A DNA stretch of 64,000 nucleotides from an uncultured Aquimarina sp. (GTDB lineage: Bacteria; Bacteroidota; Bacteroidia; Flavobacteriales; Flavobacteriaceae), in assembly GCA_947497175.1 (NCBI GenBank), contig CANMFM010000009.1, positions 36,348 to 100,347 of the forward strand, written 5' to 3'. Positions within the stretch are counted from its first letter, which is position 1. Every line of letters begins with the position of its first letter. The notes under the pieces were generated by a model that was not told where the DNA came from, ran no database searches, and worked only from the letters and a program-made list of their open reading frames with translations. Shown here piece by piece: positions 28,926 to 49,074 of this stretch. A program made the position numbers and the translations under genes.

Positions 28926-28998
28926 GACCAACGGTTACTATATCATTTTGTAGCGGGATGGTCTAAAATTAAGGTTCCGCATTGCTCAAAGGTAACAA
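28926..28998 (-). repeat. attC-like imperfect palindrome (short, family C-like)
   Basis: GACCAAC-GGTTACTATATCATTTTGTAGCGGGA ... TTCCGCATTGCTCAAAG-GTAACAA. The GTAGCGGGA/TTCCGCAT arms are inverted. The right box is degenerate. Confidence 0.5.
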
Positions 28999-29103
28999 AT
29001 GCATGTGAAATTCTATTAAGAATATCAGTTGCTATCATTCCATATTTGTAATATCTGGTTTTTTTTAAAAATAATTTTGTAAAGCTACCGAGGTGAATTA
29101 ATG

Positions 29104-29266
29104 ATTGCTTGTGTTTGTTTTTAGAATTTAGATATCAGTGCATAATGCCCTGAGCTTTGAGTAATTGTGTAAAGAGTGACGTTTGACCTTGCAATACCAA
29201 AGTGAAAATTATTGAAGATTTTTGAAAGTAGGCGAGAACAGGCAATAATTGAGAACATTGTTGGTC
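29104..29266 (-). repeat. attC-like element (family B, left end degenerate)
   Basis: The right half GATTTTTGAAAGTAGGCGAGAACAGGCAATAATTGAGAACATTGTTGGTC aligns with 43561..43611. The left end ATTGCTTGT-GTTTG lacks the AAC/AAT box seen at 30454. Confidence 0.5.
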
Positions 29267-29448
29267 AGCTACTTTTGCTTCAATAAATTCTATAGTCTTT
29301 CTATGAGCTTAAGTGTCTCAAAAGTCAGAGCCTTTCTAATCTTTGGAAACATGTCCTTACCAAACTGTTGCTTAGGCTTTAATGGTAGTTATTTTTTATT
29401 TTGTTTTTTTAAAACTCCAGTTACATTCTCAATATTTTTACCAATCAT

Positions 29449-29874
29449 TTATTGTATTTGGATTAGTGTTCTTAATCCGTGTATCATTATCATTGATGCT
29501 TTTCCAGTTTCAATGAAGTATTTGATTTCGGTTCCATTTTCTAATTGTAAAAGACCAAATGTAAGAGGTTCCCCATTTAACCCTTTAAAGTCTCCGTATG
29601 ATTTGAGAGTTGCACCATTCACATTTCCAATATTTTCAATTTTGTTCTCGTTGGTGATTAGCTTTTGAGTTGTCAAAATGCTGTAGTGTTCAGAATCAAT
29701 AACGGTTGAGCAGATAATTAATTCATTTTCTATTCGTTCGAGTTGAAGTCCAGAATATTGAAATTCAGCATTGGATTCATAAAACTTGGTCCATTTAAAG
29801 TCATACGGCTTAATGGTACTTCTTTTTATAGAAGCTACAGAAATATGATGTATAGCTTTGTCAGACTTCCTCAT
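29449..29874 (-). CDS. Hypothetical protein (cassette-borne)
   Basis: 141-aa ORF with plausible composition. No recognisable motif. Confidence 0.5.
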   Translation of the reverse strand: MRKSDKAIHHISVASIKRSTIKPYDFKWTKFYESNAEFQYSGLQLERIENELIICSTVIDSEHYSILTTQKLITNENKIENIGNVNGATLKSYGDFKGLNGEPLTFGLLQLENGTEIKYFIETGKASMIMIHGLRTLIQIQ

Positions 29875-29911
29875 TTTTCAGTATTGCTAATATTCTGAAT
29901 AAATACTCGTT

Positions 29912-30448
29912 TTAGTCACGGTTATTTTTTGTTAAACGTTTTTTGTTACACCAATACCAGACGGCATCTTCACTCCCAGGTTCATAGGGAGCAAATTTGT
30001 CAAATTCCATCCCGACTTTTTCCAGTACTCTGATCGATGCTTTGTTTTCTTTCATTGCAATCGCAATTATCCTTTCTAATTTGAGTTTATCAAATCCATA
30101 AGTCAAAATTGCATGAGATGCTTCTGTTGCAATACCTGATCCCCAAAATGCAGGTAAGAATCTATAGCCAATGTCGATTTCATCAAATTCTGGCAGATAT
30201 GCCAAACCAGCCCAACCTACAAATTGCATCCCATTCTTCAGCACAGTAGCCCATCTTCCGTATCCATACTTCTTGTAGTTGGCAATTCTTATCTGTATTG
30301 CCTTTTCTATTTCGTCTATAGATTGAACTACAGGTTCTCCTGTATATTTTTGTACCTCTGGATCTGAATGTAACTTAAATATTTCCTCCTTATCATCCAG
30401 AGTGATTTTTCTTAACAATAATCTTTCTGTTTCTAGTAGAGGTTTCAC
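29912..30448 (-). CDS. GNAT-family N-acetyltransferase (RimJ/RimL-like)
   Basis: GTG start. LLLRKITLDD...GYRFLPAFWGSGIATEA pattern. Confidence 0.85.
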   Translation of the reverse strand: MKPLLETERLLLRKITLDDKEEIFKLHSDPEVQKYTGEPVVQSIDEIEKAIQIRIANYKKYGYGRWATVLKNGMQFVGWAGLAYLPEFDEIDIGYRFLPAFWGSGIATEASHAILTYGFDKLKLERIIAIAMKENKASIRVLEKVGMEFDKFAPYEPGSEDAVWYWCNKKRLTKNNRD

Positions 30449-30456
30449 TTTATTGC

Positions 30457-30588
30457 TTGTAATGGGTTTGTCTAGTAATATTTATGCTGTTTAAGTATCT
30501 AATATAGTAAATACAAACCGAATCGAAAGTTCCCTTGGATGTTTACAAGTAGGCGAGTACTGGTAATGAATCATGCCCGGAGTTATTT
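30457..30588 (-). repeat. attC-like imperfect palindrome (family B-like)
   Basis: Left TGCTTGTAAT-GGGTTTGTCTAG. Right half AAACCGAATCGAAAG...AGTAGGCGAGTACTGGTAATGAATCATGCCCGGA-GTTATTT aligns with 33530..33601. The stop codon of 30583..30771 lies inside the GTTA box. Confidence 0.55.
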
Positions 30589-30771
30589 TTTCACAGGTCT
30601 ATAATTGCAAGCTCTATTTTCTGCGTATTCAATTTTATGTTCAGATAGAAGTTGTGAAATTATTTCTCTCGTTTCATTTTCGTCAAGATATAATTTTTCA
30701 CCAAGGTCAATTTCATTTAGCCGACCATTGTTTTTTATGAATGCGTCATAATACCGTTTTTTATTTTCCAT
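30583..30771 (-). CDS. Small hypothetical protein
   Basis: 62 aa. Overlaps the upstream methyltransferase gene by 11 nt, which suggests translational coupling. Confidence 0.45.
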   Translation of the reverse strand: MENKKRYYDAFIKNNGRLNEIDLGEKLYLDENETREIISQLLSEHKIEYAENRACNYRPVKK

Positions 30772-31860: not shown

Positions 31861-31980
31861 AGGTAACCGTCTTGTCTAAACGTAGTAGCGGATTATACAT
31901 ATTAAATTTTATTTTGGTAATCTACTTAAATAAATACAATAGCAGTTCGAGTTTGTATGCAAACCGCTATTGCGTTTATA
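31861..31980 (-). repeat. attC-like imperfect palindrome (family C)
   Basis: AGGTAAC-CGTCTTGTCTAAACGTAGTAGCGG ... CCGCTATTGC-GTTTATA. The GTAGTAGCGG/CCGCTAT arms are the same as in 35079..35209. Confidence 0.6.
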
Positions 31981-32045
31981 CTATTTTAGCTGCTGGCTTT
32001 TTATTGTCCAAATGTTCAGAAAACGAATCTATTTGTAATAAGAAT

Positions 32046-32429
32046 TTAGTCTATCACTTTTTCTAAATGCCAAATTTTGGATACTATCTGCCAGCCATCT
32101 TCTCCATTAACAAAACCAAGATGGTCTACAAATACATTATTGTGAGCTCTGATTCTTATTTTTACTGTTGCACAGTTTGATGATAACCAGTCAATCATTA
32201 GAATTTCAGCTTTGGGCTCTTGTCCTTTGCTTGCAGGTGATACTCTTCCTCCCACGTCTTTACTAAAACTGTCAATAGATTCGACAAAAACCTTACTTGT
32301 ATCAACATCAAATAGGCTAGAACTTTTGTGAAATGCTTTGTTGAGAAGCTCAGTATCACAATAATAAAGGGCATCGAAATAGGTTTGTACTGCATTTATT
32401 AAATCGGTAGGTGAATTTAATTTTCCCAT
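32046..32429 (-). CDS. NTF2-like (SnoaL/lumazine-binding-like) small protein
   Basis: 127 aa with an alpha+beta cone-type pattern (YFDALYYCDTELL..., WQIVSKIWH). Divergent from a LysR gene. Confidence 0.6.
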   Translation of the reverse strand: MGKLNSPTDLINAVQTYFDALYYCDTELLNKAFHKSSSLFDVDTSKVFVESIDSFSKDVGGRVSPASKGQEPKAEILMIDWLSSNCATVKIRIRAHNNVFVDHLGFVNGEDGWQIVSKIWHLEKVID

Positions 32430-32564
32430 AATTTCTAAATTTTAGTTCTCGACAAAATTATATGGCCAATAATTAGATTTAAAGTCTTGAAATTGAATGT
32501 TTCAAAGTTGAAGTTGAATTTTTTTCATATTGAAGGATGCTGCTAATTGTTAACTTTGTAACCT

Positions 32565-33455
32565 ATGGAAATTAAATATTTCAGACTCATAAAAACAATC
32601 GAAGAAGAGGGTAGTATCGCCAATTCTGCTGATAAATTGTTTTTAACGCAATCTGCATTAAGTCACCAATTAAGAGAGTTGGAAGAGCGTTTAGGATTTA
32701 AAGTATTTTATAGAAAGCGTAATAAATGGCAGTTAACAGAAGAAGGTGCAGAACTTTATAAATTAGGTAATTCTATACTTGATAGTATTGAACAAGGATT
32801 TCACAATATAGAACAGTTGCGAACAGGTTCTGTTGGTACTATTAAAGTTAGTACAGAATGTTATAGCTTTTATCAAGGGTTATCTTCTTTCATACAGAAA
32901 ATGGGGCTTCTGTATCCCGAAATTGAAGTTGATTTAATTCTTGAAGCCACACATCAACCTATTTCAAAAATTTTATCAAATGAGATTGATATTGCTATTG
33001 TTAGCCAAAAACCTATGAACAAAGGTTTATCAATTATAGACGTATATGAGGACGAAATATTTGCTGTTATCCACAAAGAAAATCCGTTACTTCGAGTCGA
33101 GTTTTTGGAAGCTAACGATTTCTCAGATATTCATCTTATAATTCATTCTTTTCCATTAGAAACTGTCTCGGTCTATAACCAGTTTTTAAAACCGAATAGG
33201 ATTACTCCATTAAAGATTTCCGCAATTCCCCTAACAGAAGTTGCTTTGGAAATGGTTGTTGCCAATATGGGGGTTATGTGTATGCCTAAATGGGCGTTAA
33301 AGTCATTCAAATTACCTGAATGTTTAGCGTTTAGACGAATAAGTCAGAATGGTTTGAAAAGAACACATTATTTAGTTTTTCGTACATCTGACAAAGATAA
33401 AAAATACATAAATGACTTTATTTCCAACTTTGAGGAAGATTTTTCAAAGTCTTGA
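32565..33455 (+). CDS. LysR-family transcriptional regulator
   Basis: N-terminal HTH (FRLIKTIEEEGSIANSADKLFLTQSALSHQLRELEERLG) plus a substrate-binding domain. It is the only plus-strand gene inside the array. Confidence 0.9.
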   Translation: MEIKYFRLIKTIEEEGSIANSADKLFLTQSALSHQLRELEERLGFKVFYRKRNKWQLTEEGAELYKLGNSILDSIEQGFHNIEQLRTGSVGTIKVSTECYSFYQGLSSFIQKMGLLYPEIEVDLILEATHQPISKILSNEIDIAIVSQKPMNKGLSIIDVYEDEIFAVIHKENPLLRVEFLEANDFSDIHLIIHSFPLETVSVYNQFLKPNRITPLKISAIPLTEVALEMVVANMGVMCMPKWALKSFKLPECLAFRRISQNGLKRTHYLVFRTSDKDKKYINDFISNFEEDFSKS

Positions 33456-33469: not shown

Positions 33470-33601
33470 TGTTAACGTGTTTGTGTATGATTTCGTTGCG
33501 TGTTTCAGTAACTAATTTGGCAAATATGAACCAAATAGAAAACCCGAGAGGATTTTCGTAGGTAGGCGAGTACTAGCGATGAATTATACACGGTGTTGCC
33601 A
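33470..33601 (-). repeat. attC-like imperfect palindrome (family B)
   Basis: TGTTAAC-GTGTTTGTGTATGATTTCGTTGCGTG ... AAACCCGAGAGGATTTTCGTAGGTAGGCGAGTACTAGCGATGAATTATACACGGT-GTTGCCA. Confidence 0.7.
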
Positions 33602-33619
33602 GTAGTTTTTTATTTCGTT

Positions 33620-34033
33620 TTAGTCAAAAGGAACCAAGTCAGGTTCTAAAAATTCCGTTTTGGCTTTTTTAGAGTTATAAATATCAAATCCATAGTGACA
33701 ATCCATTAATTCTTTGAAATTATATTTCAGTCGTGGAAATTCGTATATAAAGTCTTTAAAATTGTCAGAATTTGATTTGAGCATAAAATGATTTACTGCT
33801 TTAACAGCTGCCAAAGTCAAAGTCATATTGTATTTGTCTTTTGCTCCGACAAATTCTACAAACTTTTGCAATTGATTTTGGATATTTTTTTCAGCTTGTT
33901 TAGTTCCGTATTTATTAATGTTAATCCACGCTAATCTCAAGTGAGCTTCGTGAGTAAAGTCCGATGGATTTAATCCGCAACTAATGAATTTTTTTTCAAA
34001 ATCGGAATCAGAAAGATCAAAATGTTTTTCCAT
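33620..34033 (-). CDS. Hypothetical protein (cassette-borne)
   Basis: 137 aa, helical. No recognised motif. Confidence 0.5.
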   Translation of the reverse strand: MEKHFDLSDSDFEKKFISCGLNPSDFTHEAHLRLAWININKYGTKQAEKNIQNQLQKFVEFVGAKDKYNMTLTLAAVKAVNHFMLKSNSDNFKDFIYEFPRLKYNFKELMDCHYGFDIYNSKKAKTEFLEPDLVPFD

Positions 34034-34092
34034 AATTAGGTTTCTTATTTTTTCATAGTTTTCAATTTCAAAAAGAGCGTTTCTCAGATTAC

Positions 34093-34261
34093 TGGCAACG
34101 TTAAATATGTATCGTAGCAGAGCAAAATGTTACCTTGATTTTCGATATTTCTGCGCATTGGTTGCTAACTTTTTCATTCTGAAAGCATTGCGCCTTTATA
34201 AAAATACAACAATCTTTCGATTCATCGCTTAGCTGCTATGGCATCATATATGCTGTTGGTA
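34093..34261 (-). repeat. attC-like imperfect palindrome (family A)
   Basis: TGGCAAC-GTTAAATATGTATCGTAGCAGAGCAAAATGTTACC ... TTCTGCGCATTGGTTGCTAAC ... CTTTCGATTCATCGCTTAGCTGCTATGGCATCATATATGCT-GTTGGTA. Confidence 0.7.
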
Positions 34262-34268
34262 AATCGTT

Positions 34269-35066
34269 TTATTTTTTAGATTCCATTTGAGGAAGAATTT
34301 GACCATCTTTCCATTGCAATTCACGACTTATTTTTTTAACTTCCATCCAATTAGTGGTTTCGTCTTTGTAACTTCCAACTTCTTTTTGATAAACAATTTT
34401 ACCTTTTATTCCATTTTTGTCTTCTGGAAAGATTAAATCCTCAGAGAGCCAATAAACTCCAGCATCCGAAATTTGAGATATTTCGAATACTTTTTTAAGT
34501 TCATCTTTTACTTGAAAGAAATATATACCGCCTCCATCTATACCGCAAGCTTCGGCTAAATAATTAATAAAAAGTATATGGCTTACTCCATCAATTCCTT
34601 TGTTATTATGGAGTTCAATTGAGAGGTCATTTGTGGTTAATTCTACTATAGTTTCTTTGATTTGAAGTTGTTGGTTAAGATGTCGAGTTATAAGTGAATA
34701 TTGTTCTCGATCTTTTTTATAAACAAAAAAGAACTTAGAACTACCGACTTCTTTTTTCTCTAATGATATTAGACCTCCTAAAATATAACCAACTTGATTT
34801 TTATATTTAACCTTGTAAAAGGGAGATTCAATTCCATTATATTTTATAGTTTCTCCTGATTTTTTAAGTATTTTAACCTCAGTTCCAATTTTTAATAATT
34901 CTAACACCTCAGATTTGAGATCTGGAAGATTTCTAAATTTGACATTGTCACCAAATAGGTAATAATACTCTCCATTATTGAAGTCAGAATATGGATTGTG
35001 ATATTTGATATCTTGTCCAAACATAAAACTTGTAACAAATAATAGTATTATTAATATTCTTTCCAT
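34269..35066 (-). CDS. Secreted protein, possible SH3b-like N-terminal domain
   Basis: The ATG at 35066 gives signal peptide MERILIILLFVTSFMFGQ. The TTG at 35084 in the ORF track lies inside the R' box. DNVKFRNLPDLKSEVLELLKIGTEVKILK is SH3b-like by eye. Confidence 0.55.
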   Translation of the reverse strand: MERILIILLFVTSFMFGQDIKYHNPYSDFNNGEYYYLFGDNVKFRNLPDLKSEVLELLKIGTEVKILKKSGETIKYNGIESPFYKVKYKNQVGYILGGLISLEKKEVGSSKFFFVYKKDREQYSLITRHLNQQLQIKETIVELTTNDLSIELHNNKGIDGVSHILFINYLAEACGIDGGGIYFFQVKDELKKVFEISQISDAGVYWLSEDLIFPEDKNGIKGKIVYQKEVGSYKDETTNWMEVKKISRELQWKDGQILPQMESKK

Positions 35067-35078
35067 TTTTTTAATGTT

Positions 35079-35209
35079 TACCAACGGTTTTGTATATAAG
35101 TAGTAGCGGATTTTGACTAACTATGTTTCGGTAAGAAATATAGTAAATTAAACGTAAAAACGGTTCGGGTTAGCACCTAAACCGCTATTACTTATACACC
35201 TTGTTATGT
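35079..35209 (-). repeat. attC-like imperfect palindrome (family C)
   Basis: TACCAAC-GGTTTTGTATATAAGTAGTAGCGG ... CCGCTATTACTTATACACCTT-GTTATGT. Confidence 0.7.
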
Positions 35210-35286
35210 ACCGTACTATTTCACTATAAGAAAGTACATATTTTAGTTTAAAGACTTGTTCAGAAATAACCACTAAGAACTAAGCA

Positions 35287-36126
35287 TCAATCAAAATTTG
35301 TATTTATAGCAACTTCTTTCCAAGTTTTTAATTCATTCAGCAAATGCTCTGCATGTTCCTTTACAGCATTTATAGCATCCTCACCTAATTGAAGTCTTAG
35401 AGGTGTTTTATCAGATTGAAGGGCAATATCTATGGCTTTAGCAGCTTTCAAAGGGTCACCTTCTTGGGTGCCATCCATTTCCTTCGCAAAATCGCGAGTT
35501 CCTCCTACAATTTCGTTATATGCCTCTATTTTTGGCATATGCCTGAATCCATCTCCAGCAAAATCCGTTCGAAAGGCACCTGGTTCCACTATCATAGTTT
35601 TGATTCCAAATGGAGCTACCTCTTGAGCTAAAGCTTCCGAAGCTCCTTCCAATGCAAACTTTGAAGCTGAATATGCACTGAAACCCCCAAAACTCATATT
35701 ACCGCCCATACTGCTTATATTAACTATAGCACCACTTTTCTGTTTCCTCAAATAGGGTAAAACTTCTTGCGTCACGGCAACGGCACCAAAGAAGTTGGTT
35801 TCCATTTGACTTCGAAGTTCCTTTTCAGGAGTCTCTTCCAGAGCTCCAACAATGCCATATCCCGCATTATTAATCAGTACGTCTATTTTACCATATTTTT
35901 CAATGGCTTTTTGAACGGTATTTTTAATTTCTTCGCGTTTAGTGACATCCATTGAAATTGGTAATATTTGTTCGGATGCTGCCTTGGCAAGTTGTTCCAA
36001 TTTTTCCTGCCTTCTTGCGGTTGCCACTACATTATAGCCTTGAGAGACCGCATATTGAGCGAATGCTTTTCCAAAGCCTGAAGAGGCTCCTGTTATGAAC
36101 CAAACTTTACTATTTTCTTTCGTCAT
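35287..36126 (-). CDS. Short-chain dehydrogenase/reductase (classical SDR)
   Basis: TGASSGFG cofactor motif, NNAG, and the YSASK catalytic Y-x3-K. Confidence 0.9.
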   Translation of the reverse strand: MTKENSKVWFITGASSGFGKAFAQYAVSQGYNVVATARRQEKLEQLAKAASEQILPISMDVTKREEIKNTVQKAIEKYGKIDVLINNAGYGIVGALEETPEKELRSQMETNFFGAVAVTQEVLPYLRKQKSGAIVNISSMGGNMSFGGFSAYSASKFALEGASEALAQEVAPFGIKTMIVEPGAFRTDFAGDGFRHMPKIEAYNEIVGGTRDFAKEMDGTQEGDPLKAAKAIDIALQSDKTPLRLQLGEDAINAVKEHAEHLLNELKTWKEVAINTNFD

Positions 36127-36154
36127 ATCTATTTACTTTTTATTGAACTTACTT

Positions 36155-37087: not shown

Positions 37088-37169
37088 ATCTATTTTTTTT
37101 GGTTATACATTTAATACAACTCAAAATTAGAGATGAGCAAAACCAAAAAATTGTAAATTCTTGGGGTAT

Positions 37170-38054: not shown

Positions 38055-38145
38055 TTGAATAATGAGAATTTTACGTGATTATTATTTTAAATCTCTTGTC
38101 GATGTCATCAAGTGGAACGCTTAGCGTAAATTAATTTCGTATGGT

Positions 38146-38316: not shown

Positions 38317-38323
38317 AATATTT

Positions 38324-39594: not shown

Positions 39595-39598
39595 TGCA

Positions 39599-40150: not shown

Positions 40151-40168
40151 AAAGTTTGTTTTAATGCA

Positions 40169-40336
40169 CTATAACGTTTATATATGTGTCGTAGCAGGGC
40201 AAAATGTTACCTTGATTTTCTATATTTCTGTGCATTGGTTGCTAACTTTTACTTTTTGCAAGCATTACGCCTTTATAAATATACAACAACCAATCGATTG
40301 ATCACTTTGCTGCTATGATCACATATAAAGTTTTAG
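40169..40336 (-). repeat. attC-like imperfect palindrome (family A)
   Basis: CTATAAC-GTTTATATATGTGTCGTAGCAGGGCAAAATGTTACC ... CAATCGATTGATCACTTTGCTGCTATGATCACATATAAA-GTTTTAG. Confidence 0.65.
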
Positions 40337-40345
40337 CAAATGTCC

Positions 40346-40980: not shown

Positions 40981-40994
40981 TGAGTTTTTATGTT

Positions 40995-41061
40995 TGCTAA
41001 CGGTAAATGTATGAGGTGAATGTCTCTTTAGAGCATTATAACTTCATACATCGTGTTAGCA
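40995..41061 (-). repeat. attC-like imperfect palindrome (short, 67 bp)
   Basis: TGCTAAC-GGTAAATGTATGAGGT ... ACTTCATACATCGT-GTTAGCA. The TGTATGAGGT/ACTTCATACA arms are inverted. Confidence 0.7.
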
Positions 41062-41066
41062 AATTG

Positions 41067-42716
41067 TTATTCCATATTCTTCGAGGTAACGACTTTTAGG
41101 TGTAAGTTACCAGTTATTGGTTTTGAAAGTTTAACTTTTAGAGAGTTTCCATCAACTCCTATAAAATTACCAATGACAGGCTCTCCGCCAAAATAGTTAG
41201 TAACTCCTAGATAAAATTCTTGAACTCTACCGATTAGATGTTTTTTACTTATATCAATAAATGAAATATTATTTGTTGGAGGAGTTGTAATTGATTCCTT
41301 GATTGAATAATGAGTTCCTCGCATATTAACATTGCCATCAGAAGTATTATTCGTAATATATGTATCAAAAATTTGATCTTGATTGAAATAAAAATTTCTT
41401 GGTGTAAGAATTTTAAATGCTTCTATTTGAATATTACTTTGAAAAATATTGTTTGTAACTGTAAATCCTCGAATATTTTGATTTGTCCAATTTGATTCTA
41501 TTTCAAAAGGCGCATAATTGGTATCATCATCAACATAAATGAAATAACAGTTAGTAACTGAGGTCATTTTAGGTCCTCCAATATTCAATTTACAATTATC
41601 AAAATAACAAGCCGTTATTCTGTTGGCTGAAGTATTACCTTCTAATTTCATTCCATAAAATGAATCATATATATGTATTTTATCGTATACGTTTGCTGTA
41701 GATCCAATGGACCTAACACCATATTCTAGTCCTTTCATTGCAATATTAGTAAAGTGGTGATCCGAATTCGAGAAATTTCCATTGTTTTCTAATCTGATAC
41801 CTGTTCCAGTTCTATGCTCAACGCCTTCATCAAAATAATCTCCATCTTTGTTAATAAAAAAAGAATTCGTTATAATTATTTCATTTGATTCTCCGTGTAC
41901 TAAAACTCCGCTCATATCCTTATCAATATCAAAAACTGAAAAGTTATCGAATACCCATCTAATACTATTAGCTAACCTTATACCACTAGTTTTGTAATTA
42001 CAGTTGAGTGTAATGTTTTTGAAAATGATATTTTCTCTATTAAACCTTCTTTCGTCAGTTGAAGATGTTTTTTCAATATACGTATCAAATAAGAAATCAC
42101 CTGTAAAACTATCATTTGCTCTTATAATCCCATTAGACAATTGAAAGGTGCTAGTTTCTGGAAGTAATACTTTGTTTTCTAAGACAAATTCTCCTCCCGC
42201 AAAATCTAAAAGAATATTACTGTTGTTAGTTTTTGTATCATTAATTTTTATCCTTGTAACCGCTTTTTGTCTCCGCATAATGAAATTCAAAGATTGTTTT
42301 ATGCTATCATCATCAGGAATAGTGTCATTTTGGACAGCACCCCACCAATGGGGATATACTTTTTTAATTTTTGAATTTCCTAATATTTCTGCATTGTTGT
42401 TGAGTTTGAATATTTGTTGTAATCCGGCATCAATACTTCCATTAAGGGTTAATTTGACGTTATTATCTATTATTAGTTTATTTCCGTTAAAAAAATGGAG
42501 TTCTATACCTTTTGGAATTATAAAATTATTTTTTAAAATAATGTCTCCTTTAATCGTTAATGTCCCAATACCATTTAATTCAGAAATCGCATCTGACAGA
42601 ACATTATTAATAGTTGGATTATTATCTTGAACTCCTCCAAGTATTACTAATTCTGTAGTTTGTCCGATTATCGATAGAGAAACTAATAAAAATAAGGTAG
42701 TAAATTTTCTTTTCAT
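41067..42716 (-). CDS. Secreted right-handed parallel beta-helix (pectate-lyase-fold) protein
   Basis: Signal peptide. VYPHWWGAVQNDTIPDDDSIKQSLNFI resembles the N-terminus of pectate_lyase_3-type domains. N/I/F-rich repeats fit beta-helix coils. Confidence 0.65.
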   Translation of the reverse strand: MKRKFTTLFLLVSLSIIGQTTELVILGGVQDNNPTINNVLSDAISELNGIGTLTIKGDIILKNNFIIPKGIELHFFNGNKLIIDNNVKLTLNGSIDAGLQQIFKLNNNAEILGNSKIKKVYPHWWGAVQNDTIPDDDSIKQSLNFIMRRQKAVTRIKINDTKTNNSNILLDFAGGEFVLENKVLLPETSTFQLSNGIIRANDSFTGDFLFDTYIEKTSSTDERRFNRENIIFKNITLNCNYKTSGIRLANSIRWVFDNFSVFDIDKDMSGVLVHGESNEIIITNSFFINKDGDYFDEGVEHRTGTGIRLENNGNFSNSDHHFTNIAMKGLEYGVRSIGSTANVYDKIHIYDSFYGMKLEGNTSANRITACYFDNCKLNIGGPKMTSVTNCYFIYVDDDTNYAPFEIESNWTNQNIRGFTVTNNIFQSNIQIEAFKILTPRNFYFNQDQIFDTYITNNTSDGNVNMRGTHYSIKESITTPPTNNISFIDISKKHLIGRVQEFYLGVTNYFGGEPVIGNFIGVDGNSLKVKLSKPITGNLHLKVVTSKNME

Positions 42717-42728
42717 TTTTTTAATATT

Positions 42729-42918
42729 TGCTAACGTTCAGCTATGCGTAGTGCGGGAGCAAAAAAACATTGGTTTTCGATCAAGCACTTAGCCAAAGTT
42801 TATGTTTTGTTTTTATCTTTTCTAAAATACTAAATTTAAATCTTTGGCGACAAATCAAATAAACAATAGTCTTTCGATTAAACCTATATTCCGCATTATC
42901 GCATAGGTGTTGTTCTAA
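42729..42918 (-). repeat. attC-like imperfect palindrome (190 bp)
   Basis: TGCTAAC-GTTCAGCTATGCGTAGTGCGGGA ... TTCCGCATTATCGCATAGGTGTT-GTTCTAA. The CTATGCG..GCGGGA/TTCCGC..CGCATAG arms are inverted. The TAG stop of 42915..43466 lies inside the box. Confidence 0.7.
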
Positions 42919-43466
42919 GTCGTTTTTTTATTTTTCCATCCTCTTTTTTCAAAACTTCTCACATTCTTACTATCCTTTATTGAGTTCAGATATTCCGCAA
43001 GAATTTTCAATTCCGAGTCAGTTTGGTCTCCTTCAAAGGCGGTCACATATACCGCATTGCCATAATTATCCTTTGTTTTTTCAGGAGAATCGTCAATCAT
43101 CAGTATCCGTTCAATTGAGAAACCTTTCTTTTTTACTTTTTTAAGTCTTTTTTCGTGAACATATTCGTCAAGTTGATAATCCCTTTTTGTGGTACAGCGA
43201 GTTCTTCCCCAAACAAATTCAAATTCAATATTTTCAGGTTTTATTTTTTTTACTATTTCCTTAACATACTTATCGTCAGCAGATGACCAAATAGCTAATT
43301 TAAAATTAACACTCATAGACTCTAAAAACCATTCAAGATTTGGTCTTCTATAAATGAAATAATCAGCATATTGAAAGTCAAAATCAATTTCGAGTTTATG
43401 TTCAGTTGCGTGAATAAGAGTTTCGTCCAAATCCAGTACTAGTAGTATTTTGTTTTTAATTTCCAA
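42915..43466 (-). CDS. HAD-superfamily NIF/FCP1-like phosphatase
   Basis: TTG start. LVLDLDETLIH carries the DxDxT motif in the characteristic DLDETL context of NLI-interacting-factor-like phosphatases. MIDDSP motif IV-like region. Confidence 0.75.
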   Translation of the reverse strand: MEIKNKILLVLDLDETLIHATEHKLEIDFDFQYADYFIYRRPNLEWFLESMSVNFKLAIWSSADDKYVKEIVKKIKPENIEFEFVWGRTRCTTKRDYQLDEYVHEKRLKKVKKKGFSIERILMIDDSPEKTKDNYGNAVYVTAFEGDQTDSELKILAEYLNSIKDSKNVRSFEKRGWKNKKTT

Positions 43467-43480
43467 ATTTCGTTAATGGC

Positions 43481-43611
43481 TTAGAACGTGTTTGTATATG
43501 GTTTGTTGCGTGGTTTAGCACGTAATTTAGCAAATAAAAACCGAATAGAAAATCCGCGAGGATTTTCAGAAGTAGGTGAGAACCAGCAATTACTTATAGC
43601 CATTGTTGGCT
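43481..43611 (-). repeat. attC-like imperfect palindrome (family B)
   Basis: TTAGAAC-GTGTTTGTATATGGTTTGTTGCGTGG ... AAACCGAATAGAAAATCCGCGAGGATTTTCAGAAGTAGGTGAGAACCAGCAATTACTTATAGCCATT-GTTGGCT. Confidence 0.7.
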
Positions 43612-43622
43612 ACAGTTATTTG

Positions 43623-45128
43623 TTATTCATAATTGCCTTCTGGGTCTGTTTTATAAACTAATAGTTCTGGTTTTTCTTCTCCATAATAATAGTTTTTACT
43701 CAAACTTCCTGCAACTCTATATCCTCCATCTTCTTCAGGCAATATTGAACGACCATATAGGTAGGTGAAACTTTCTTGATATTTCTTGTTCCATTCCTCT
43801 GTACCCGAACTAGAAAATTTGTAAATTCCTAATGCGCCATAATTACCTAAATCAACATGTCCTGTTGTAATGAATCCACCATCCATGGTTTCAGCTATAG
43901 AGAAAGTTGAAGATAATTCTGTAGAAACATTCCAAACTTCTGTACCTTCAGGGTCGATTTCAAAGATTCTACCCCCACTTATGTCATAAGCACCCCAGCT
44001 ATATCCTGCAAAAGCATAATTTCCATTACTCTTTGTTATTATTTTTCTCGGAAAATCATAACGACCATCTCCAAAAGTATTTTCCCATAAAGTTTCTCCA
44101 TCATTTGTTAGCTTTAAAACCCAGAAGTCAATTTGTTCATCTTGTGTAGAAGTTGCTCCATTCGTTTCAGTTGACCCTAATACTATAAGGTTATTCGCAT
44201 TTGTAATAATAATATCGTAGAAAAAATTTCGTCGTGAGGGTTCAAAAATTTTCTCCCATTGAATTATTCCAGAAGAATTAAGTTTTGTCAATACAGCTTG
44301 TTGTTTTATCAGAGAGTTATCAGAACCTCTACCTCCAACAATAAATATACTTCCTTCAGAATCTTGGGCAACAGATTTTATATCAGCAGAACCATCTAGA
44401 ATACCATAGCTATCAATTTTTTTATACCAGATAATATTTCCTTCACTATCCAAACTTAAAACATGATGATGACTAACCAAAATAAAACCAGTTAGTGAAT
44501 TAATAATAGTTGGATTCCAACCATCAGTTAGGTCATAATCATAAAATTTTTTCCATAATTCATTTCCATCATAATCAATTTTTGAAACGAAAAGGCGATA
44601 CCCATTTCCATTTGGAAATACAGATGCTCCAGCGATAATATAATTTTGGTCATTGGATTTTATCATGGTATTAGGACCTCCATAAGCATAACCATTCGGG
44701 CCATAACTATATTCACCATAATCATATTTTTTGAGGTATTTTAAATAGTATTTTTCAGTTTGAAAAGAAAAAGTAACCTCTGTTTGATTGTTTTCAGTAT
44801 CTTTTGCAATTATTTTTCCAGAATAGTCAGTTAATTCTTCAAGGTCAATAAATTCATATGTGAGTTCAGTAATGTTTTCAATAACTAATTCTTGGTTTAA
44901 ATAAATATCATAGATTACCGTATCATTTTCTGGGTCAGTAGCTTGATTCCAATTAAGTGTTGCGCCTTCAGATGAAACATTGATAATTTCAATATCAAAA
45001 TTATTCGGCGCAAGATTAATTATTTCTTCTTCTTCTTCTTCTTCTTCTATAATTTCATTTATAGAATCATCTTTCGAACATCCTATTATTAAAAAGATAA
45101 TTAATAATGTAGAATAAAATTTTTCCAT
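43623..45128 (-). CDS. Lipoprotein with E-rich linker, FN3 domain and beta-propeller-like C-terminal region
   Basis: The internal ATG at 45128 gives MEKFYSTLLIIFLIIGCS (lipobox). The 18-codon upstream extension in the ORF track reads through the attC-like site. FN3-like region APNNFDIEIINVSSEGATLNWNQATDPE. Confidence 0.7.
   Translation of the reverse strand: MEKFYSTLLIIFLIIGCSKDDSINEIIEEEEEEEEIINLAPNNFDIEIINVSSEGATLNWNQATDPENDTVIYDIYLNQELVIENITELTYEFIDLEELTDYSGKIIAKDTENNQTEVTFSFQTEKYYLKYLKKYDYGEYSYGPNGYAYGGPNTMIKSNDQNYIIAGASVFPNGNGYRLFVSKIDYDGNELWKKFYDYDLTDGWNPTIINSLTGFILVSHHHVLSLDSEGNIIWYKKIDSYGILDGSADIKSVAQDSEGSIFIVGGRGSDNSLIKQQAVLTKLNSSGIIQWEKIFEPSRRNFFYDIIITNANNLIVLGSTETNGATSTQDEQIDFWVLKLTNDGETLWENTFGDGRYDFPRKIITKSNGNYAFAGYSWGAYDISGGRIFEIDPEGTEVWNVSTELSSTFSIAETMDGGFITTGHVDLGNYGALGIYKFSSSGTEEWNKKYQESFTYLYGRSILPEEDGGYRVAGSLSKNYYYGEEKPELLVYKTDPEGNYE
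45025..45048. repeat. (TTC)8 / (GAA)8 microsatellite inside a CDS
   Basis: Eight perfect TTC units on the + strand encode the E8 run of the lipoprotein. Confidence 0.9.
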
Positions 45129-45146
45129 TTTCTTGTTTTTAATTGT

Positions 45147-45213
45147 GGCCAACGTTTCTTGTATGTTGCGTTTGCTTCCCAATTAAGCAAATGAAATATA
45201 CAAACTGTTGTAG
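45147..45213 (-). repeat. attC-like imperfect palindrome (short, 67 bp)
   Basis: GGCCAAC-GTTTCTTGTATGTTGCGTTTGCTT ... AAGCAAATGAAATATACAAACT-GTTGTAG. The inverted arms are GTTT.TTGTAT/ATACAAAC and TTTGCTT/AAGCAAA. Confidence 0.7.
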
Positions 45214-45217
45214 TGCG

Positions 45218-47374
45218 TTATTTTTTTAATTTATTTTCGATGTTTTTAATAAATGTATGGTTGTTATCAAAATAATCTTTAGCTATATCTAATGCTTGAT
45301 TATATTTTTCAATTGCTAGAGAATTGTTTCGTTGATTCTCTTTAATTATGTCTCCTTCTAAGTTTAGTAAATATGCATCATATATCGTTATATCTTTATT
45401 AAAACAATTTGCCTTTGTTAAGCGTGCTTTTTTTAAAAAGTCCAAACTTTCAATATATTTTCTTTGATTTAATTTCGATTCTATAATATTTAAATAACAT
45501 ACAAGCTGATTTACACTCCGTTGTTTACCATAATAATCATCAAGTTTTTTTATAGCAATTTTATATAATGAATCAGCTTTTTTATATTTTTCAAAATGCA
45601 TCAAATTGGTTGCTAAGCCATTGTATGCAATTCCTAAATTAGAAGATTTACTTATGCCAAAATTCTTATGACACTCAATTGTTACTTTAAAAATAGAATC
45701 AGATAGTTTTGAGTTAAATCCGATATTAATGTTACCTAAATCATTATGAAAAACCGTATTGCTTGGATAAGTAGTTTCGTATTCTGCTAAAAAGTTGAGA
45801 ACACTTGAGCTAATACTGTTTTTATCATAACTGATGTCTAATTCATCATTTATTTGAGCTATATTTAATTCAAGAGAATTTTTTTTAACTACATTAAGAT
45901 TTTTATAGAAATTAAGAGCTTTTTTGTAATGTTTTTTAGATTCGACATAATTCCCTTTTATGAAATTATATTGACCTAAAAGTTCATCTATATACGCTTG
46001 GCCGTAGTTATTGTTCTTGGTTTTTGAAATTAAACTTTGTGTGATTAGAATTTCCTGTTCAAAGTCTTTAAAATCAGAGTTTTTAAGTTCTAATTGCAGT
46101 AGTAGAATTTTTGAAACAAGTAAACTAGAAGGTTTGTTTTCTTGTTTATAACAATCACAAGTTCTATTAGCTAGCTTTAAAGCTTCTTTGATGTTTTCTT
46201 TTTGATATATACTAGTTTTATATAGCAAATATTTACAGTTGTTACTTGAAACTATGTTTTCGTATTCTGTTAAATATGTTTTAGCATTTTGAATACTATC
46301 GGTAGCTAGATAATTTTTAATTAACCGGATATAAGTATTCTCAAATGAATTTAGATTACTTATGCTGTCATGATTTAAGATTTGCAAAGATAATTTGTTT
46401 AATGATATTGCATCACCATAAAATGAACGGTCATAGGAATTTTCAGCTACATTTTCTATAATATAGTAGTAGTCAATATCGACGGTATCTTTTACTTTTG
46501 AGTAATTATCTATTAAATATTCAAATTCAGAATCATAATTATCGTAATCTAACAGCTTATTGTATGTTAATAAAAGATTATACCTGTTCCAATAGATATC
46601 ACTTTCTGTGGATTTTATATATTTTGGTTTATGCTCTTTATGAGTTAAAATACTATCTGCTTTAATATAATTTTTTAAAGCAAGGGGGTAATTTTTGTTA
46701 TCGTAAAAGTTATCTCCGTTGGCTATATAGGCATCTGCTAAAAATTCATATGTTCCAGAAAAATCTTGATAGCGTAAAGTGTCATAATTCCTCCATTCTT
46801 TGCCATATAATATTGCCTCTTTAGCATTAATTATAGCTTTGTCATATTTTTTAAGATTCATTAAGTCCTCGTAATTATGTATTCTGTCAAACATTAATAA
46901 GTTATAATAAACACTAGAATCAGGAGAAACCATTCTTAGTAAGATGTTTCTATACATATTAAAATGAATGCTGGAAAAAGAAAAAAATGACGTGAAAATG
47001 GCAATAACTATGGATCGGTAAAATATGTATTTAAGTTTTTTAGTAAAATTATTTTTTTTATAAATCCATAAGCCAATTAATGTAAGTGAAAAGATAATAT
47101 TTATTGAAATTAGAACTTTTCTGAAAATAGATACTGGTAACCATAATGTAAAGGCGAAAATACCTAAAGCTGAGCCTAAAATTATTCCTACTAATATGTT
47201 CACTTCATCTTGGTCATTTTGGTAACTTAAAAAATAAAACCCACCTATGATATAGCATATACTTAGAATAGATGTGCTTATCAGTAAAGGTGTTGTAAAA
47301 TGATTTCCGAATATTAAGACCCCAAGGAAAAGTAAAAGAATAGTTCCAATTAGAATTTTTTCACTTTTTTTCAT
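45218..47374 (-). CDS. Membrane-anchored tetratricopeptide-repeat protein
   Basis: 718 aa. The N-terminal ~140 aa hold about 5 TM helices. The rest is Y/N/K-rich TPR-like repeats (YDKAIINAKEAILYGK..., ALKNYIKADSIL...). Confidence 0.65.
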   Translation of the reverse strand: MKKSEKILIGTILLLFLGVLIFGNHFTTPLLISTSILSICYIIGGFYFLSYQNDQDEVNILVGIILGSALGIFAFTLWLPVSIFRKVLISINIIFSLTLIGLWIYKKNNFTKKLKYIFYRSIVIAIFTSFFSFSSIHFNMYRNILLRMVSPDSSVYYNLLMFDRIHNYEDLMNLKKYDKAIINAKEAILYGKEWRNYDTLRYQDFSGTYEFLADAYIANGDNFYDNKNYPLALKNYIKADSILTHKEHKPKYIKSTESDIYWNRYNLLLTYNKLLDYDNYDSEFEYLIDNYSKVKDTVDIDYYYIIENVAENSYDRSFYGDAISLNKLSLQILNHDSISNLNSFENTYIRLIKNYLATDSIQNAKTYLTEYENIVSSNNCKYLLYKTSIYQKENIKEALKLANRTCDCYKQENKPSSLLVSKILLLQLELKNSDFKDFEQEILITQSLISKTKNNNYGQAYIDELLGQYNFIKGNYVESKKHYKKALNFYKNLNVVKKNSLELNIAQINDELDISYDKNSISSSVLNFLAEYETTYPSNTVFHNDLGNINIGFNSKLSDSIFKVTIECHKNFGISKSSNLGIAYNGLATNLMHFEKYKKADSLYKIAIKKLDDYYGKQRSVNQLVCYLNIIESKLNQRKYIESLDFLKKARLTKANCFNKDITIYDAYLLNLEGDIIKENQRNNSLAIEKYNQALDIAKDYFDNNHTFIKNIENKLKK

Positions 47375-47397
47375 TTAAGTATTTTTCTTTTGGTAAT

Positions 47398-47572
47398 GCA
47401 CTACAACGCCAAATATATGAATCGGAGCAAGGCAAGTATACCTGAACCAATTGATCTATCTGCGCATTTTTATTTCTTATTAAACTTATAAAAACTTAGC
47501 GCTTTTGCAAAAAAATGAAATAATCTGTCGATCCAGTAGTAAATTGCTCTAATTTTATATATCATGTTAGGC
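47398..47572 (-). repeat. attC-like imperfect palindrome (divergent family A)
   Basis: GCACTACAAC-GCCAAATATATGAATCGG ... TCTGCGCATT ... TTTTATATATCAT-GTTAGGC. The TAA stop of 47567..47974 lies inside GCCTAAC on the minus strand. Confidence 0.7.
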
Positions 47573-47974
47573 AATGTTCTCTATTTCCGTCATACTTAAT
47601 TTTTCAATCAATATCTTTTTCAGATTAAACTCTTCCCTAAAATTAGTGGGGTTTTCAATGAGAATTTGACTTAGAGCTTCGAAATGAAACCTTAGTTTAA
47701 CTGGGGTATATTTTTTCGTTTTCCTATGCCAAAGTAAAACTCCATTTAAATCGAAGTTTCTATTAAACTTATCTTTAGTTTTTTTATGAGTTTTGCTATC
47801 AAAACTTCTGCTTATTGCAATAGAATTTTGTTTTTTTGGAAATCCAATTCCATCAAACTTTGATATTGTCAAAGTTTCTTTATAAAGTGGAAATTCACTT
47901 TCAAGAATTTTCGCCAAATCTTTATCGAATTGTTCTAAATGTTCTCTTCTTAATTTTTTATAAAAGATTTTCAT
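47567..47974 (-). CDS. Hypothetical protein (cassette-borne)
   Basis: 135 aa. No recognised motif. Confidence 0.5.
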   Translation of the reverse strand: MKIFYKKLRREHLEQFDKDLAKILESEFPLYKETLTISKFDGIGFPKKQNSIAISRSFDSKTHKKTKDKFNRNFDLNGVLLWHRKTKKYTPVKLRFHFEALSQILIENPTNFREEFNLKKILIEKLSMTEIENIA

Positions 47975-47983
47975 CTCAACATT

Positions 47984-48154
47984 GCCTAACGTTTAATATA
48001 TATGTCATAACAGGGCAAAATGTTACCTTGCTTTTTGATTTTTCTGCGCATTGGTTGCTAACTTTTCCATTCTGCAAGCATTGCGCCTTACCAAATATAC
48101 AAGAACCAATCAATTGATCACTTAGCTGCTATGATCGCATATATAATGTTAGGC
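47984..48154 (-). repeat. attC-like imperfect palindrome (family A)
   Basis: GCCTAAC-GTTTAATATATATGTCATAACAGGGCAAAATGTTACC ... CAATCAATTGATCACTTAGCTGCTATGATCGCATATATAAT-GTTAGGC. These match the canonical RYYYAAC / GTTRRRY boxes. Confidence 0.75.
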
Positions 48155-48163
48155 AATGTTTTA

Positions 48164-48604
48164 TTATTCAGTTTTTTTATCCATTTTTTTTCCTACGGAA
48201 TCTATTTTATCGTTTAATGAATTCAGTTGAATTTCAAGTAAATTATTCCGCTCTCGTATAATCTCGTTTTGGGTACTTAATTTTTTGTTTATCTGTTGTA
48301 GTTGGTTAATTTGGTCATTTTGCCATTTTTGATCTCCTCTGTAATCAATACTAGCGAAAACAACACCAATTATTGATAAGATAATTGCGATTACTGATAG
48401 AACTATAACAAAATTTGTAAGCTTGGTAGATTTTTTTGCAAATTCATTATTTGATCTTCTTACTAATTCATTATGAGATAAGTTTGCGATATCTCTTTTA
48501 ACGTTTGGAGATTTAGTGGTGTCTAAAAAATCATTAGAATTGTTAGTGTATAACTTCTTAAGTTCCTCCTCGGACATTTCAAATATTTCAAGTTTTTCAG
48601 TCAT
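48164..48604 (-). CDS. Hypothetical single-TM coiled-coil protein
   Basis: 146 aa, with a central TM (FVIVLSVIAIILSIIGVVFA) and a Q/N-rich coiled-coil C-terminus. Confidence 0.5.
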   Translation of the reverse strand: MTEKLEIFEMSEEELKKLYTNNSNDFLDTTKSPNVKRDIANLSHNELVRRSNNEFAKKSTKLTNFVIVLSVIAIILSIIGVVFASIDYRGDQKWQNDQINQLQQINKKLSTQNEIIRERNNLLEIQLNSLNDKIDSVGKKMDKKTE

Positions 48605-48624
48605 TAAATTCTTGTATTTTCGAT

Positions 48625-49056
48625 TTACTTTAACTTAAATTTACTCCCTTCCTTATATCCAACTGGTAATTTGGGACTTTTAATTCCGAAAGGTCCAGAT
48701 CCATTATGATTGTAATAAAATTCTTCTTTGTTGTCCGAATATCTTCCTGCACAAAGAAGATTAAATGTTGTACTTTTTCTACTAGATTTTAACACATTTA
48801 TATCAATCCATACTGGAACTTTACCTTTTCTATATAACAAATCTACCACTTCATTATCCGATAAGTCAAGTTGCATTTTACCAGTATCTTCAGGATAAAT
48901 ATCAAATTGTGGTAGATTTGGATCGTCCGTTGAGGCGTTTAGAATAACATTATATTTGAAGTCAGTAGTTAGTTTATTTTTGACATAGTTTTCAGCAAAC
49001 TTAAGAGCTACTAAACTCGCTCCTTGTAGATGAAATAAGAATTCTTCTTTTGTCAT
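48625..49056 (-). CDS. Hypothetical protein (first gene of the array)
   Basis: 143 aa. It ends 20 nt before the next ORF with no palindrome between them, so the two form a two-gene unit. Confidence 0.5.
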   Translation of the reverse strand: MTKEEFLFHLQGASLVALKFAENYVKNKLTTDFKYNVILNASTDDPNLPQFDIYPEDTGKMQLDLSDNEVVDLLYRKGKVPVWIDINVLKSSRKSTTFNLLCAGRYSDNKEEFYYNHNGSGPFGIKSPKLPVGYKEGSKFKLK

Positions 49057-49067
49057 TTTTTAATATT

Positions 49068-49074
49068 GCCTAAC
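49068..49074 (-). other. Terminal R'-like box (GTTAGGC on minus strand) at the promoter-proximal end of the array
   Basis: The + strand ATATTGCCTAAC lies 12 nt from the 49056 start. It is the reverse complement of GTTAGGCAATGT at 48148, the other end of the same unit (11/12 matches). No palindromic partner was recognised to its right. Confidence 0.5.

Follow-up and report, generated by a model that had tools for sequence, protein, structure and literature searches.

Integrons are defined in practice by an integrase carrying a specific extra domain, which is regarded as necessary for recombination at folded attC sites. This IntI-specific additional domain (∼35 residues near patch III) is considered necessary for activity (PMC4889954, PMC9668308). 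Sedentary chromosomal integrons are large, having more than 19 sites that resemble one another, and occupy one chromosomal locus per species (PMC4889954); a cluster of attC sites lacking an integron integrase is called a CALIN (Cury et al. 2016, PMC4889954). The canonical attC site has an unpaired central spacer of 5–6 nt per arm, an extrahelical G in L'' and an extrahelical T six bp further, opposite the AAC, and it recombines at the A/C boundary in 5'-AAC-3' of R' (PMC5027507). Large surveys found the Bacteroidetes to be nearly free of integrons (PMC4889954, PMC9024848). Here, we describe an integron-type cassette array that occupies ∼24.2–49.07 kb of a 64-kb stretch of an Aquimarina (Flavobacteriaceae) chromosome, hereafter the window, and is well preserved above 33.47 kb. 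The gene of its own recombinase is lost, and it is likely that the array is served in trans by a cognate Xer/IntI-related enzyme.

Between 33.4 and 49.1 kb the genes lie on the minus strand, and every gap contains an imperfect palindrome running from ...YAAC to GTTR... on the plus strand. A cassette consists of one gene, sometimes two or three, followed by a hairpin site, and the units start and stop inside a conserved plus-strand AAC (G/TT on the coding strand). We observed 13 intact sites (33.47–48.15 kb, 67–190 bp) and a further five that have decayed, reaching down to 24.2 kb; the orientation is the same throughout. The sites comprise family A (∼170 bp), families B and C (∼130 bp) and two short sites of 67 bp; five family-A sites are mutually 78–87% identical. 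Copies of these families in the window are all in the plus orientation and are confined to 24.2–48.2 kb. The cassette genes are functionally unrelated (GNAT, methyltransferase, LysR, SH3, dehydrogenases with AraC, GRAM, NIF phosphatase and TPR proteins), and many are without a Pfam match. The window has a G+C content of ∼32% and no tRNA genes; zero Rfam families matched in it at gathering thresholds, which is uninformative on attC sites. The features are as follows.

33470-49074, minus strand: well-preserved part of the array, 13 cassettes; the recombination sites have the plus strand as their bottom strand
49072-49074, plus strand: terminal AAC (G/TT on the minus strand), junction of the first cassette with the conserved attI-like region; sister-strain identity begins here
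49075-49119, minus strand: attI-like region, from the recombinase stop codon to the junction; contains the palindrome AAAGGATATATATCCTTT at 49083-49100
49120-49194, minus strand: tyrosine recombinase stub, last ∼16–24 codons (...VALNSFESIKNPLDL); codons 49123-49194, stop 49120-49122
49295-49667, no strand: 9.1 copies of a 41-bp tandem repeat, at the place expected for the body of the recombinase gene
47984-48154, plus strand: attC-like site 1, family A, 171 bp, GCCTAAC...GTTAGGC
47401-47572, plus strand: attC-like site 2, divergent family A, 172 bp; part of the cassette common to the sister strain L001
45147-45213, plus strand: attC-like site 3, short, 67 bp
43481-43611, plus strand: attC-like site 4, family B, 131 bp
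42729-42918, plus strand: attC-like site 5, divergent family A, 190 bp
40995-41061, plus strand: attC-like site 6, short, 67 bp, TGCTAAC...GTTAGCA
40169-40336, plus strand: attC-like site 7, family A, 168 bp
39461-39594, plus strand: attC-like site 8, 134 bp, 3' box ATT and not GTT
38839-39009, plus strand: attC-like site 9, family A, 171 bp
38146-38316, plus strand: attC-like site 10, family A, 171 bp
35079-35209, plus strand: attC-like site 11, family C, 131 bp
34093-34261, plus strand: attC-like site 12, family A, 169 bp
33470-33601, plus strand: attC-like site 13, family B, 132 bp
47990-49073, minus strand: cassette 1, ORFs (open reading frames) 48625-49056 (143 aa) and 48164-48604 (146 aa), site 1
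47407-47989, minus strand: cassette 2, ORF 47567-47974 (135 aa), site 2; 99% identical to L001 ∼181-763, at another array position
45153-47406, minus strand: cassette 3, 718-aa membrane/TPR protein, site 3
43487-45152, minus strand: cassette 4, lipoprotein-like ORF 43623-45128, site 4
42735-43486, minus strand: cassette 5, NIF-type phosphatase, site 5
41001-42734, minus strand: cassette 6, 549-aa secreted protein, site 6
40175-41000, minus strand: cassette 7, a pair of small ORFs (67 aa, 74 aa), site 7
39467-40174, minus strand: cassette 8, GRAM/PH-domain membrane protein, site 8
38845-39466, minus strand: cassette 9, 148-aa ORF, site 9
38152-38844, minus strand: cassette 10, 129-aa ORF, site 10
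35085-38151, minus strand: cassette 11, three genes (AraC regulator, two short-chain dehydrogenases), site 11
34099-35084, minus strand: cassette 12, SH3-domain protein, site 12
33476-34098, minus strand: cassette 13, 137-aa ORF, site 13
31861-31992, plus strand: decayed family-C-like site, AGGTAAC...TTTTAGC, the G of GTT lost, below the LysR/lumazine-binding unit
30470-30588, plus strand: decayed family-B-like site, 3' half intact (GTTATTT at 30582), 5' box lost, below the methyltransferase unit
28926-29266, plus strand: composite 341-bp site, family-C-like in its 5' half (GACCAAC at 28926) and family-B-like in its 3' half (GTTGGTC at 29260)
24217-24346, plus strand: outermost recognisable attC-like site, TGCTAAC...GTTTTAC, 130 bp, below an S41 peptidase gene

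The outer flanks of these sites pair across genes. The preliminary description, made from the DNA letters, had listed 13 such flank pairs, and all of them are present, with two starts off by one (GTTGTGCTT at 39003 and not 39004, ATTACACAAC at 38836 and not 38837); the 40330/40991 pair is alignable only with a 1-nt indel, as had been stated there. In a permutation test, we compared the 9 nt outside each AAC/GTT, pairing the GTT flank of each site with the AAC flank of the site next above it. The pairing across genes matched at 93 of 117 positions, whereas shuffled pairings gave a mean of 44.6 (standard deviation 6.6, maximum 80) and 0 of 200,000 reached 93. The two flanks of one and the same palindrome matched at only 49 of the 117 positions. 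The GTT flank below a gene is thus complementary to the AAC flank above that gene and not to the other flank of its own site, as had been proposed.

We compared the window with the sister strain L001 (GCA_947494615.1), which encodes identically the 256-aa DUF6261 protein beside the array. The recG gene, the M1 peptidase gene and neighbouring core genes of the two strains are 99.3–99.9% identical, yet the array content differs. At the array/flank junction the window reads ...TTGCCTAAC/AATCTTACAAAGG and L001 reads ...GTACACAAC/AATCTTACAAAGG, identity beginning right after the AAC at 49074 (with AATCTT). Identity with L001 broke exactly at the AAC at 3 of 3 junctions, namely the array/flank junction and both ends of the one common cassette, with a resolution of the 3-nt AAC itself. 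The common cassette (47407-47989) occupies a different array position in L001. This common unit is made of the gene and the palindrome on its low-coordinate (3') side, and the palindrome above the gene is excluded. Therefore, the crossover lies in the plus-strand AAC, the site is 3' of its gene, and the plus strand corresponds to the attC bottom strand. An unrelated difference between the two strains lies away from the array: L001 has an extra 580-aa amidohydrolase gene (16128-17930) between the patatin gene and the next gene, which is absent at window 55932-55938.

Cassettes that are 77–94% identical in four other Aquimarina species likewise end at the AAC box. Part of cassette 7 is 94% identical to a sequence of Aquimarina rubra (L063), the match beginning at the AAC. 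The two-gene unit at 32046-33455, with a divergent LysR regulator (plus strand) and a lumazine-binding protein (minus strand), behaves as one cassette and recurs at 77% identity in A. mytili (L062), ending at an AAC box. The methyltransferase unit above the site at 30470-30588 is 83% identical in A. litoralis (L105), and the cassette 5 gene with both of its R boxes (42735-43486) is 93% identical to L041 5423-6001 of Aquimarina sp. AU474. The pairing of flanks across genes and the breakpoints in the sister strain and in other species support a crossover inside the AAC. We conclude that the cassettes have been shown to be discrete AAC-bounded units moving between array positions and genomes. The integron-type reading of the preliminary description is therefore sustained by the permutation test and by a sister strain carrying another cassette set, the differences of which break at the AAC boxes at all three junctions examined.

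The sites also behave as folded structures. We reconstituted each site by joining the upper AAC flank of a cassette to the body of its lower site; the folding energies ranged from -13.6 to -34.5 kcal/mol, and most of these sites formed long hairpins in which the R stem measures 10–14 bp. The inner arms co-vary: the mean folding energy was -8.4 kcal/mol with a site's own arms and -2.8 when arms were exchanged across families, and the observed value was reached in 0 of 100,000 permutations. Arm-swap energies were used, and no covariance model of the window sites was built, because the MAFFT alignment of the trimmed sites followed sequence and not the pairing register. An inverted-repeat search recovered just two of the sites because their arms contain bulges. 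Generic hairpin scans for AAC...GTT pairs, ranked by energy or by stem length, were dropped, the true sites being inseparable from background in this AT-rich DNA.

As a reference for site geometry, nine class 1 attC sites were taken from plasmid records, and the script used for the array sites was applied to eight of these. The R boxes are of the form RYYYAAC/GTTRRRY in class 1 attC sites and in the sites of the window and its relatives alike. All 13 intact sites show YAAC...GTTR, save the one with ATT, and the base following the AAC is G in 13 of 13, as in class 1 attC sites. The spacer of the AAC arm is 5–6 nt in the window and its relatives and ∼6 nt in class 1 sites, and the L stem has the loose consensus TRTATG/CATAYA. 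On the opposite arm, class 1 sites have a spacer of 5 nt and one extrahelical G, so that their arms are nearly symmetric; bulges of 1–3 nt occur on this arm in some sites of the window and relatives, at variable positions, whereas in class 1 sites the position is fixed. Of the features of the canonical attC fold, the R boxes, the L boxes and the hairpin folding were found, and the symmetric 5–6-nt spacers and consistent extrahelical bases were not.

The lower part of the array is less well preserved. A palindrome had been claimed for nearly every intergenic gap of 28926-49074; this is correct for 33.47–49.07 kb, with its 13 intact sites and terminal AAC, and fails for 28.9–33.4 kb, where the sites are decayed, partial or composite only. 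The site at 24217-24346 falls outside that range and is the probable old end of the array. In the composite site at 28926-29266 the boxes GACCAAC and GTTGGTC complement each other, and this site may be a fusion left after intervening cassettes were lost. Positions 16226-17143, a further 7 kb down from this outermost recognisable site at 24217-24346, encode an AraC-type regulator that has a domain of the GyrI-like/'Cass2 integron-associated effector binding' kind; no hairpin site adjoins it.

At its upper end the array borders on what is left of a tyrosine recombinase gene. The 3' end of the stub is identical at 22 of 23 nt to the 3' end of an intact gene in another array-bearing locus (L090), at the same distance from the junction, and L001 carries the same stub. 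Apart from its last ∼16–24 codons, the recombinase gene is missing from the array. The 41-bp repeat lies between the stub and the DUF6261 gene, with 94% identity among its copies and a short hairpin (GCTCCTGAAGTTTGCAGGAG) in each unit; it was seen nowhere but in the window and L001 (9623-9864, ∼6 copies), with differing copy numbers. The attI-like region is itself a small palindrome, and the same layout (stop codon, 8–15 nt, a palindrome of 18–24 bp, 4–9 nt, GTT) was observed in 11 of the 11 other array heads examined. A sigma-70 promoter scan near the array head gave matches at chance level, with a consensus that is ill-suited to Bacteroidota promoters.

We searched the window and 120 array-bearing loci (L001-L120) by tblastn with IntI1, a query that scored 799 bits on NF011946 and was 100% identical to annotated intI1 genes. 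This search found a ∼376-aa recombinase in three loci, and no canonical IntI in any of these sequences; the only family found was Xer-like. Altogether, an intact recombinase of this kind heads the arrays of nine Bacteroidota loci (L049, L055, L090, L121, L122, L123, L128, L129 and L130), where it is encoded on the cassette strand with the first AAC/GTT junction ∼45–60 bp past its stop codon. At five further array heads the copy of the gene is truncated or frameshifted, in two cases beside insertion sequence (IS) ends. The recombinase family, intact or decayed, is present at a fixed distance from the first junction at 15 array heads in several genera and two orders. Homologues from Aureibaculum, 'bacterium SCSIO 12643' and a further Aquimarina, three in all, likewise stand at the head of arrays in which the sites share one orientation and this architecture; the complementarity of cassette ends was checked in SCSIO 12643. 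Full-length homologues of 40–45% identity head such arrays on plasmids of Chondrinema and Rufibacter (Cytophagales) and of Chryseobacterium (Flavobacteriales). Some Aquimarina genomes have several recombinase paralogues, such as P0015, P0018 and P0063 in one genome. The large family to which the recombinase belongs is named 'site-specific tyrosine recombinase/integron integrase' by the NCBI annotation pipeline PGAP.

The best NCBIfam match of the ∼376-aa recombinase was XerA (215–241 bits, cut-off 220). The integron integrase model TIGR02249 scored 189–203 bits, in two pieces, with a cut-off of 265, and NF011946 scored 116–128 bits with a cut-off of 435. In the alignment with IntI1 the catalytic R-K-H-R-H-Y residues are kept, ∼41 residues are missing at the IntI-specific domain, and ∼105 extra residues are present at the N terminus. 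Its best solved relatives were, in order, XerA (4A8E, 5HXY), IntI4 (2A3V) and XerD. The extra N-terminal part is compact in the AlphaFold model (pLDDT, the predicted local distance difference test score, 77.7), with a beta-beta-alpha-beta-beta-alpha-beta order, and this domain has no Pfam match. The enzyme is roughly equidistant from Xer and IntI and differs from a canonical IntI.

A small ORF (∼120–130 aa) was observed immediately upstream of the recombinase gene and on the other strand in 6 of the 9 loci where the recombinase is intact; the window lacks it.

L049 6200-6568, L055 3792-4154, L090 814-1185, L121 9507-9902, L123 9540-9908, L128 6336-6725, opposite to the recombinase: small upstream ORF

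The copies compared (L049, L055 and L090) are ∼120 aa long and 60–66% identical, with an N-terminal CxxC...CxxxC zinc ribbon and no Pfam family. Their product is a possible accessory factor. Some of the related arrays have also been invaded by other elements. IS110-family elements break up hairpin sites in L123 (15047-16628 and 17169-19013), a group II intron lies at a site in L128 (8616-10637), where it starts with GTGTG in place of the GTT box, and the L129 and L130 arrays contain IS110 and ltrA genes. IS and intron families that target attC sites, namely IS1111-attC and group IIC-attC, are known from integrons.

Beyond the window, the 22-nt core of family A recurs in species-representative genomes, in at least 119 stretches; Aquimarina accounts for nearly all of these. 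A few matches are labelled Tenacibaculum, Dokdonia, Sungkyunkwania, Saprospiraceae or Alcanivoracaceae. Those in metagenome-assembled genome bins beyond the Flavobacteriaceae (L106, labelled Alcanivoracaceae, and L057, Saprospiraceae) reflect either a spread of cassettes across families or a binning error. The matches in the complete genome NZ_CP159328.1 are spread over 136–224 kb. We counted 473 sites in 121 sources, and no locus had sites in both orientations. Of 312 intervals between sites, 301 had their longest ORF on the expected strand, the one that places the site 3' of the gene; the median cassette unit was 859 bp. The plasmid collection gave no match to the family-A site. All of these features correspond to those of an integron cassette array.

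Several observations weigh against the proposal that this array is served by a cognate enzyme acting at attC-type sites. There is no tyrosine recombinase ORF within the 64-kb window, and for this reason we only infer an enzyme acting in trans; the match of the stub taken alone is weak (tblastn E=0.014). The opposite-arm spacer is usually 2–3 nt in the window (8 of 13 sites, range 1–6) and 3–4 nt in Rufibacter, and a consistent extrahelical G or T is absent from the 13 intact window sites. A substitute attC covariance model (R1), made from the nine class 1 sites, matched zero window sites. This null is uninformative and not negative, as R1 is too insensitive for its own long training sites (12–24 bits) and recovers those of 60 nt at 50–58 bits. 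The site body of cassette 5 is of the divergent type in the window and of ordinary family A in L041, so the gene has been kept with a different site body, which simple cassette mobility does not predict; this suggests that site bodies are exchanged or converted between cassettes. Finally, part of the strain difference could be explained by replacement of the whole array through homologous recombination in its flanks.

The alternative that survives best, though we regard it as unlikely, is an ordinary integron remnant of the CALIN type, built by a canonical IntI that is encoded elsewhere or was lost, with the Xer-like recombinase as a passenger or in some other role. The array conforms to the canonical type in its R boxes and conserved AACG, in where the crossover lies, in co-orientation and in cassette size, and CALINs without a nearby intI are common (PMC4889954). 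However, the IntI1 search of the window and L001-L120 gave the Xer-like family only, and this family, whether intact or decayed, recurs at a fixed distance from the first junction at 15 heads in several genera and two orders. The site geometry, moreover, deviates from canonical attC exactly where the extra domain of IntI would act, and almost no complete integrons have been found in surveys of the Bacteroidetes (PMC9024848).

Signs of decay could be taken to mean that the array is a fossil, formed by site-specific insertion in the past, in which present strain differences come from homologous recombination and deletion only, without any active recombinase. The recombinase gene is deleted in the window and decayed at five other array heads, the sites of the lower array (24–33 kb) are decayed, and the site body of cassette 5 has been swapped without its gene. 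We consider this improbable, as strains that are 99.3–99.9% identical and share the stub and the repeat nevertheless differ from the first base past the AAC junction, and one 99%-identical cassette lies at different positions with AAC-exact ends. In addition, the 13 upper sites retain intact boxes and hairpins, and some Aquimarina genomes maintain several recombinase paralogues.

The sites are intergenic, AT-rich, imperfect palindromes downstream of genes, and the associated enzyme is Xer-like with XerA structures (4A8E, 5HXY) as its best solved relatives, but dispersed repeats (miniature inverted-repeat transposable elements (MITEs), repetitive extragenic palindromes (REP) or terminators) or Xer/dif module boundaries served by the host XerC/D are very improbable, given that an outer flank finds its partner across a gene and not at the other end of its own site, that the 67–190-bp hairpins are all co-oriented and confined to arrays, that strain differences break at the AAC, and that the recombinase is dedicated, multi-copy and array-linked with an extra domain, unlike a housekeeping XerC/D. 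MITEs come with target-site duplications and pdif sites are 28 bp long in alternating orientation; neither such duplications nor 28-bp alternating sites occur among the window sites. The preliminary description had likewise set MITEs, REP elements and terminators aside.

We therefore return to the preferred reading of an array that is without its own recombinase and is served in trans. By the integron paradigm, each unit would once have been a circle closed at one hairpin site. A tyrosine recombinase would cut the folded bottom (plus) strand within the AAC, so that circular cassettes would be inserted at 49072-49074 beside the palindromic attI-like site, and the same Xer-like recombinase would excise cassettes between sites on folded bottom strands. 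The predicted cognate enzyme is the ∼376-aa Xer/IntI-related recombinase heading the Bacteroidota arrays, with its novel N-terminal domain and without the IntI domain. The choice of strand may be made through the asymmetry of the spacers and not through extrahelical bases, which fits the absence of the IntI domain. The stub and the 41-bp repeat block are common to both sister strains, and therefore the deletion of the recombinase predates their split. As these strains have the stub and the repeat in common and nevertheless diverge starting with the first cassette, turnover probably went on after the loss, and a recombinase paralogue elsewhere in the genome would act in trans on the window array.

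The array shares with sedentary chromosomal integrons, such as the Vibrio cholerae superintegron with its VCR (V. cholerae repeat) sites, a chromosomal, co-oriented series of mostly single-gene and apparently promoterless cassettes with RYYYAAC/GTTRRRY hairpin ends. Other shared traits are a crossover in the bottom-strand AAC, variation of the array between close strains, a few highly similar site families that dominate the host genus as VCRs do, and the insertion of IS110-type elements and group II introns at sites. It has ∼18 recognisable sites, and the array of the sister strain, the one other strain seen, is at the same DUF6261/recG locus. It differs in its host, a member of the Flavobacteriaceae in a phylum that is nearly integron-free in surveys (PMC9024848). 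It differs also in the recombinase of the related arrays, which is without the IntI domain, has an extra N-terminal domain and lies on the cassette strand with the attI-like site after its stop codon. In addition, the attI-like site is itself a small palindrome, and the sites have an asymmetric spacer (5–6 versus 2–3 nt) and no consistent extrahelical bases.

Like a CALIN, the locus is an attC-type array with no integrase gene nearby, probably as a result of integrase loss. With 13 intact and 5 decayed sites it agrees with the definition of at least two clustered attC sites and no nearby integron integrase gene, provided that these sites count as attC. In contrast to other CALINs, a stub of the lost gene remains in the window, this gene was not a canonical intI, and turnover apparently continued after the loss. 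The placement of the recombinase on the cassette strand, with the insertion site beside its 3' end, is reminiscent of the 'inverted integrase' integrons (e.g. that of Treponema denticola), but those enzymes have the IntI-specific domain (PMC4889954) and the Bacteroidota enzyme is without it.

Xer recombinases (archaeal XerA and bacterial XerC/D) are the closest to the recombinase core by sequence and by fold, and they too have no IntI insertion. Xer, however, resolves dimers at one 28-bp dif site, whereas the Bacteroidota enzyme is a dedicated one, has an extra domain and heads long co-oriented hairpin arrays. Short sites in alternating orientation characterise pdif modules, and the action of Xer on folded single-stranded sites is known from the CTX phage. 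A non-exhaustive literature search found no description of Aquimarina or Flavobacteria integrons, nor of arrays of the integron kind with recombinases other than IntI. We would class the element as an integron-like cassette array of the CALIN type, belonging to a Bacteroidota lineage in which the recombinase and the geometry of the sites deviate from how integrons are defined.

On balance, and with only slightly more confidence for than against, we favour the view that the Bacteroidota (Flavobacteriales and Cytophagales, on chromosomes and plasmids) have an integron lineage of their own. Its putative recombinase, Xer/IntI-related, lacking the IntI domain and bearing a new N-terminal domain, with a small partner ORF, of zinc-ribbon type in the three copies compared, at 6 of 9 loci, would act on attC-type hairpins as well as on an attI-like one located past its stop codon.

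In the window the array accounts for 20–25 kb of strain-specific genes. Together with its relatives, it makes up large, actively varying cassette arrays in marine Flavobacteriaceae, and the same architecture is found on Chryseobacterium and two Cytophagales plasmids; all of these are tied to a recombinase without the IntI domain. If this lineage is real, the supposedly necessary IntI domain would be dispensable for cassette recombination at folded sites, and surveys based on intI_Cterm would miss the cassette pool of a whole phylum. If the link between the enzyme and the arrays is functional, cassette capture would be known from a wider range of hosts and with a broader enzymology, a natural experiment on hairpin strand choice without extrahelical-base recognition would be at hand, and abundant marine bacteria would hold a large and mostly uncharacterised pool of cassette genes.

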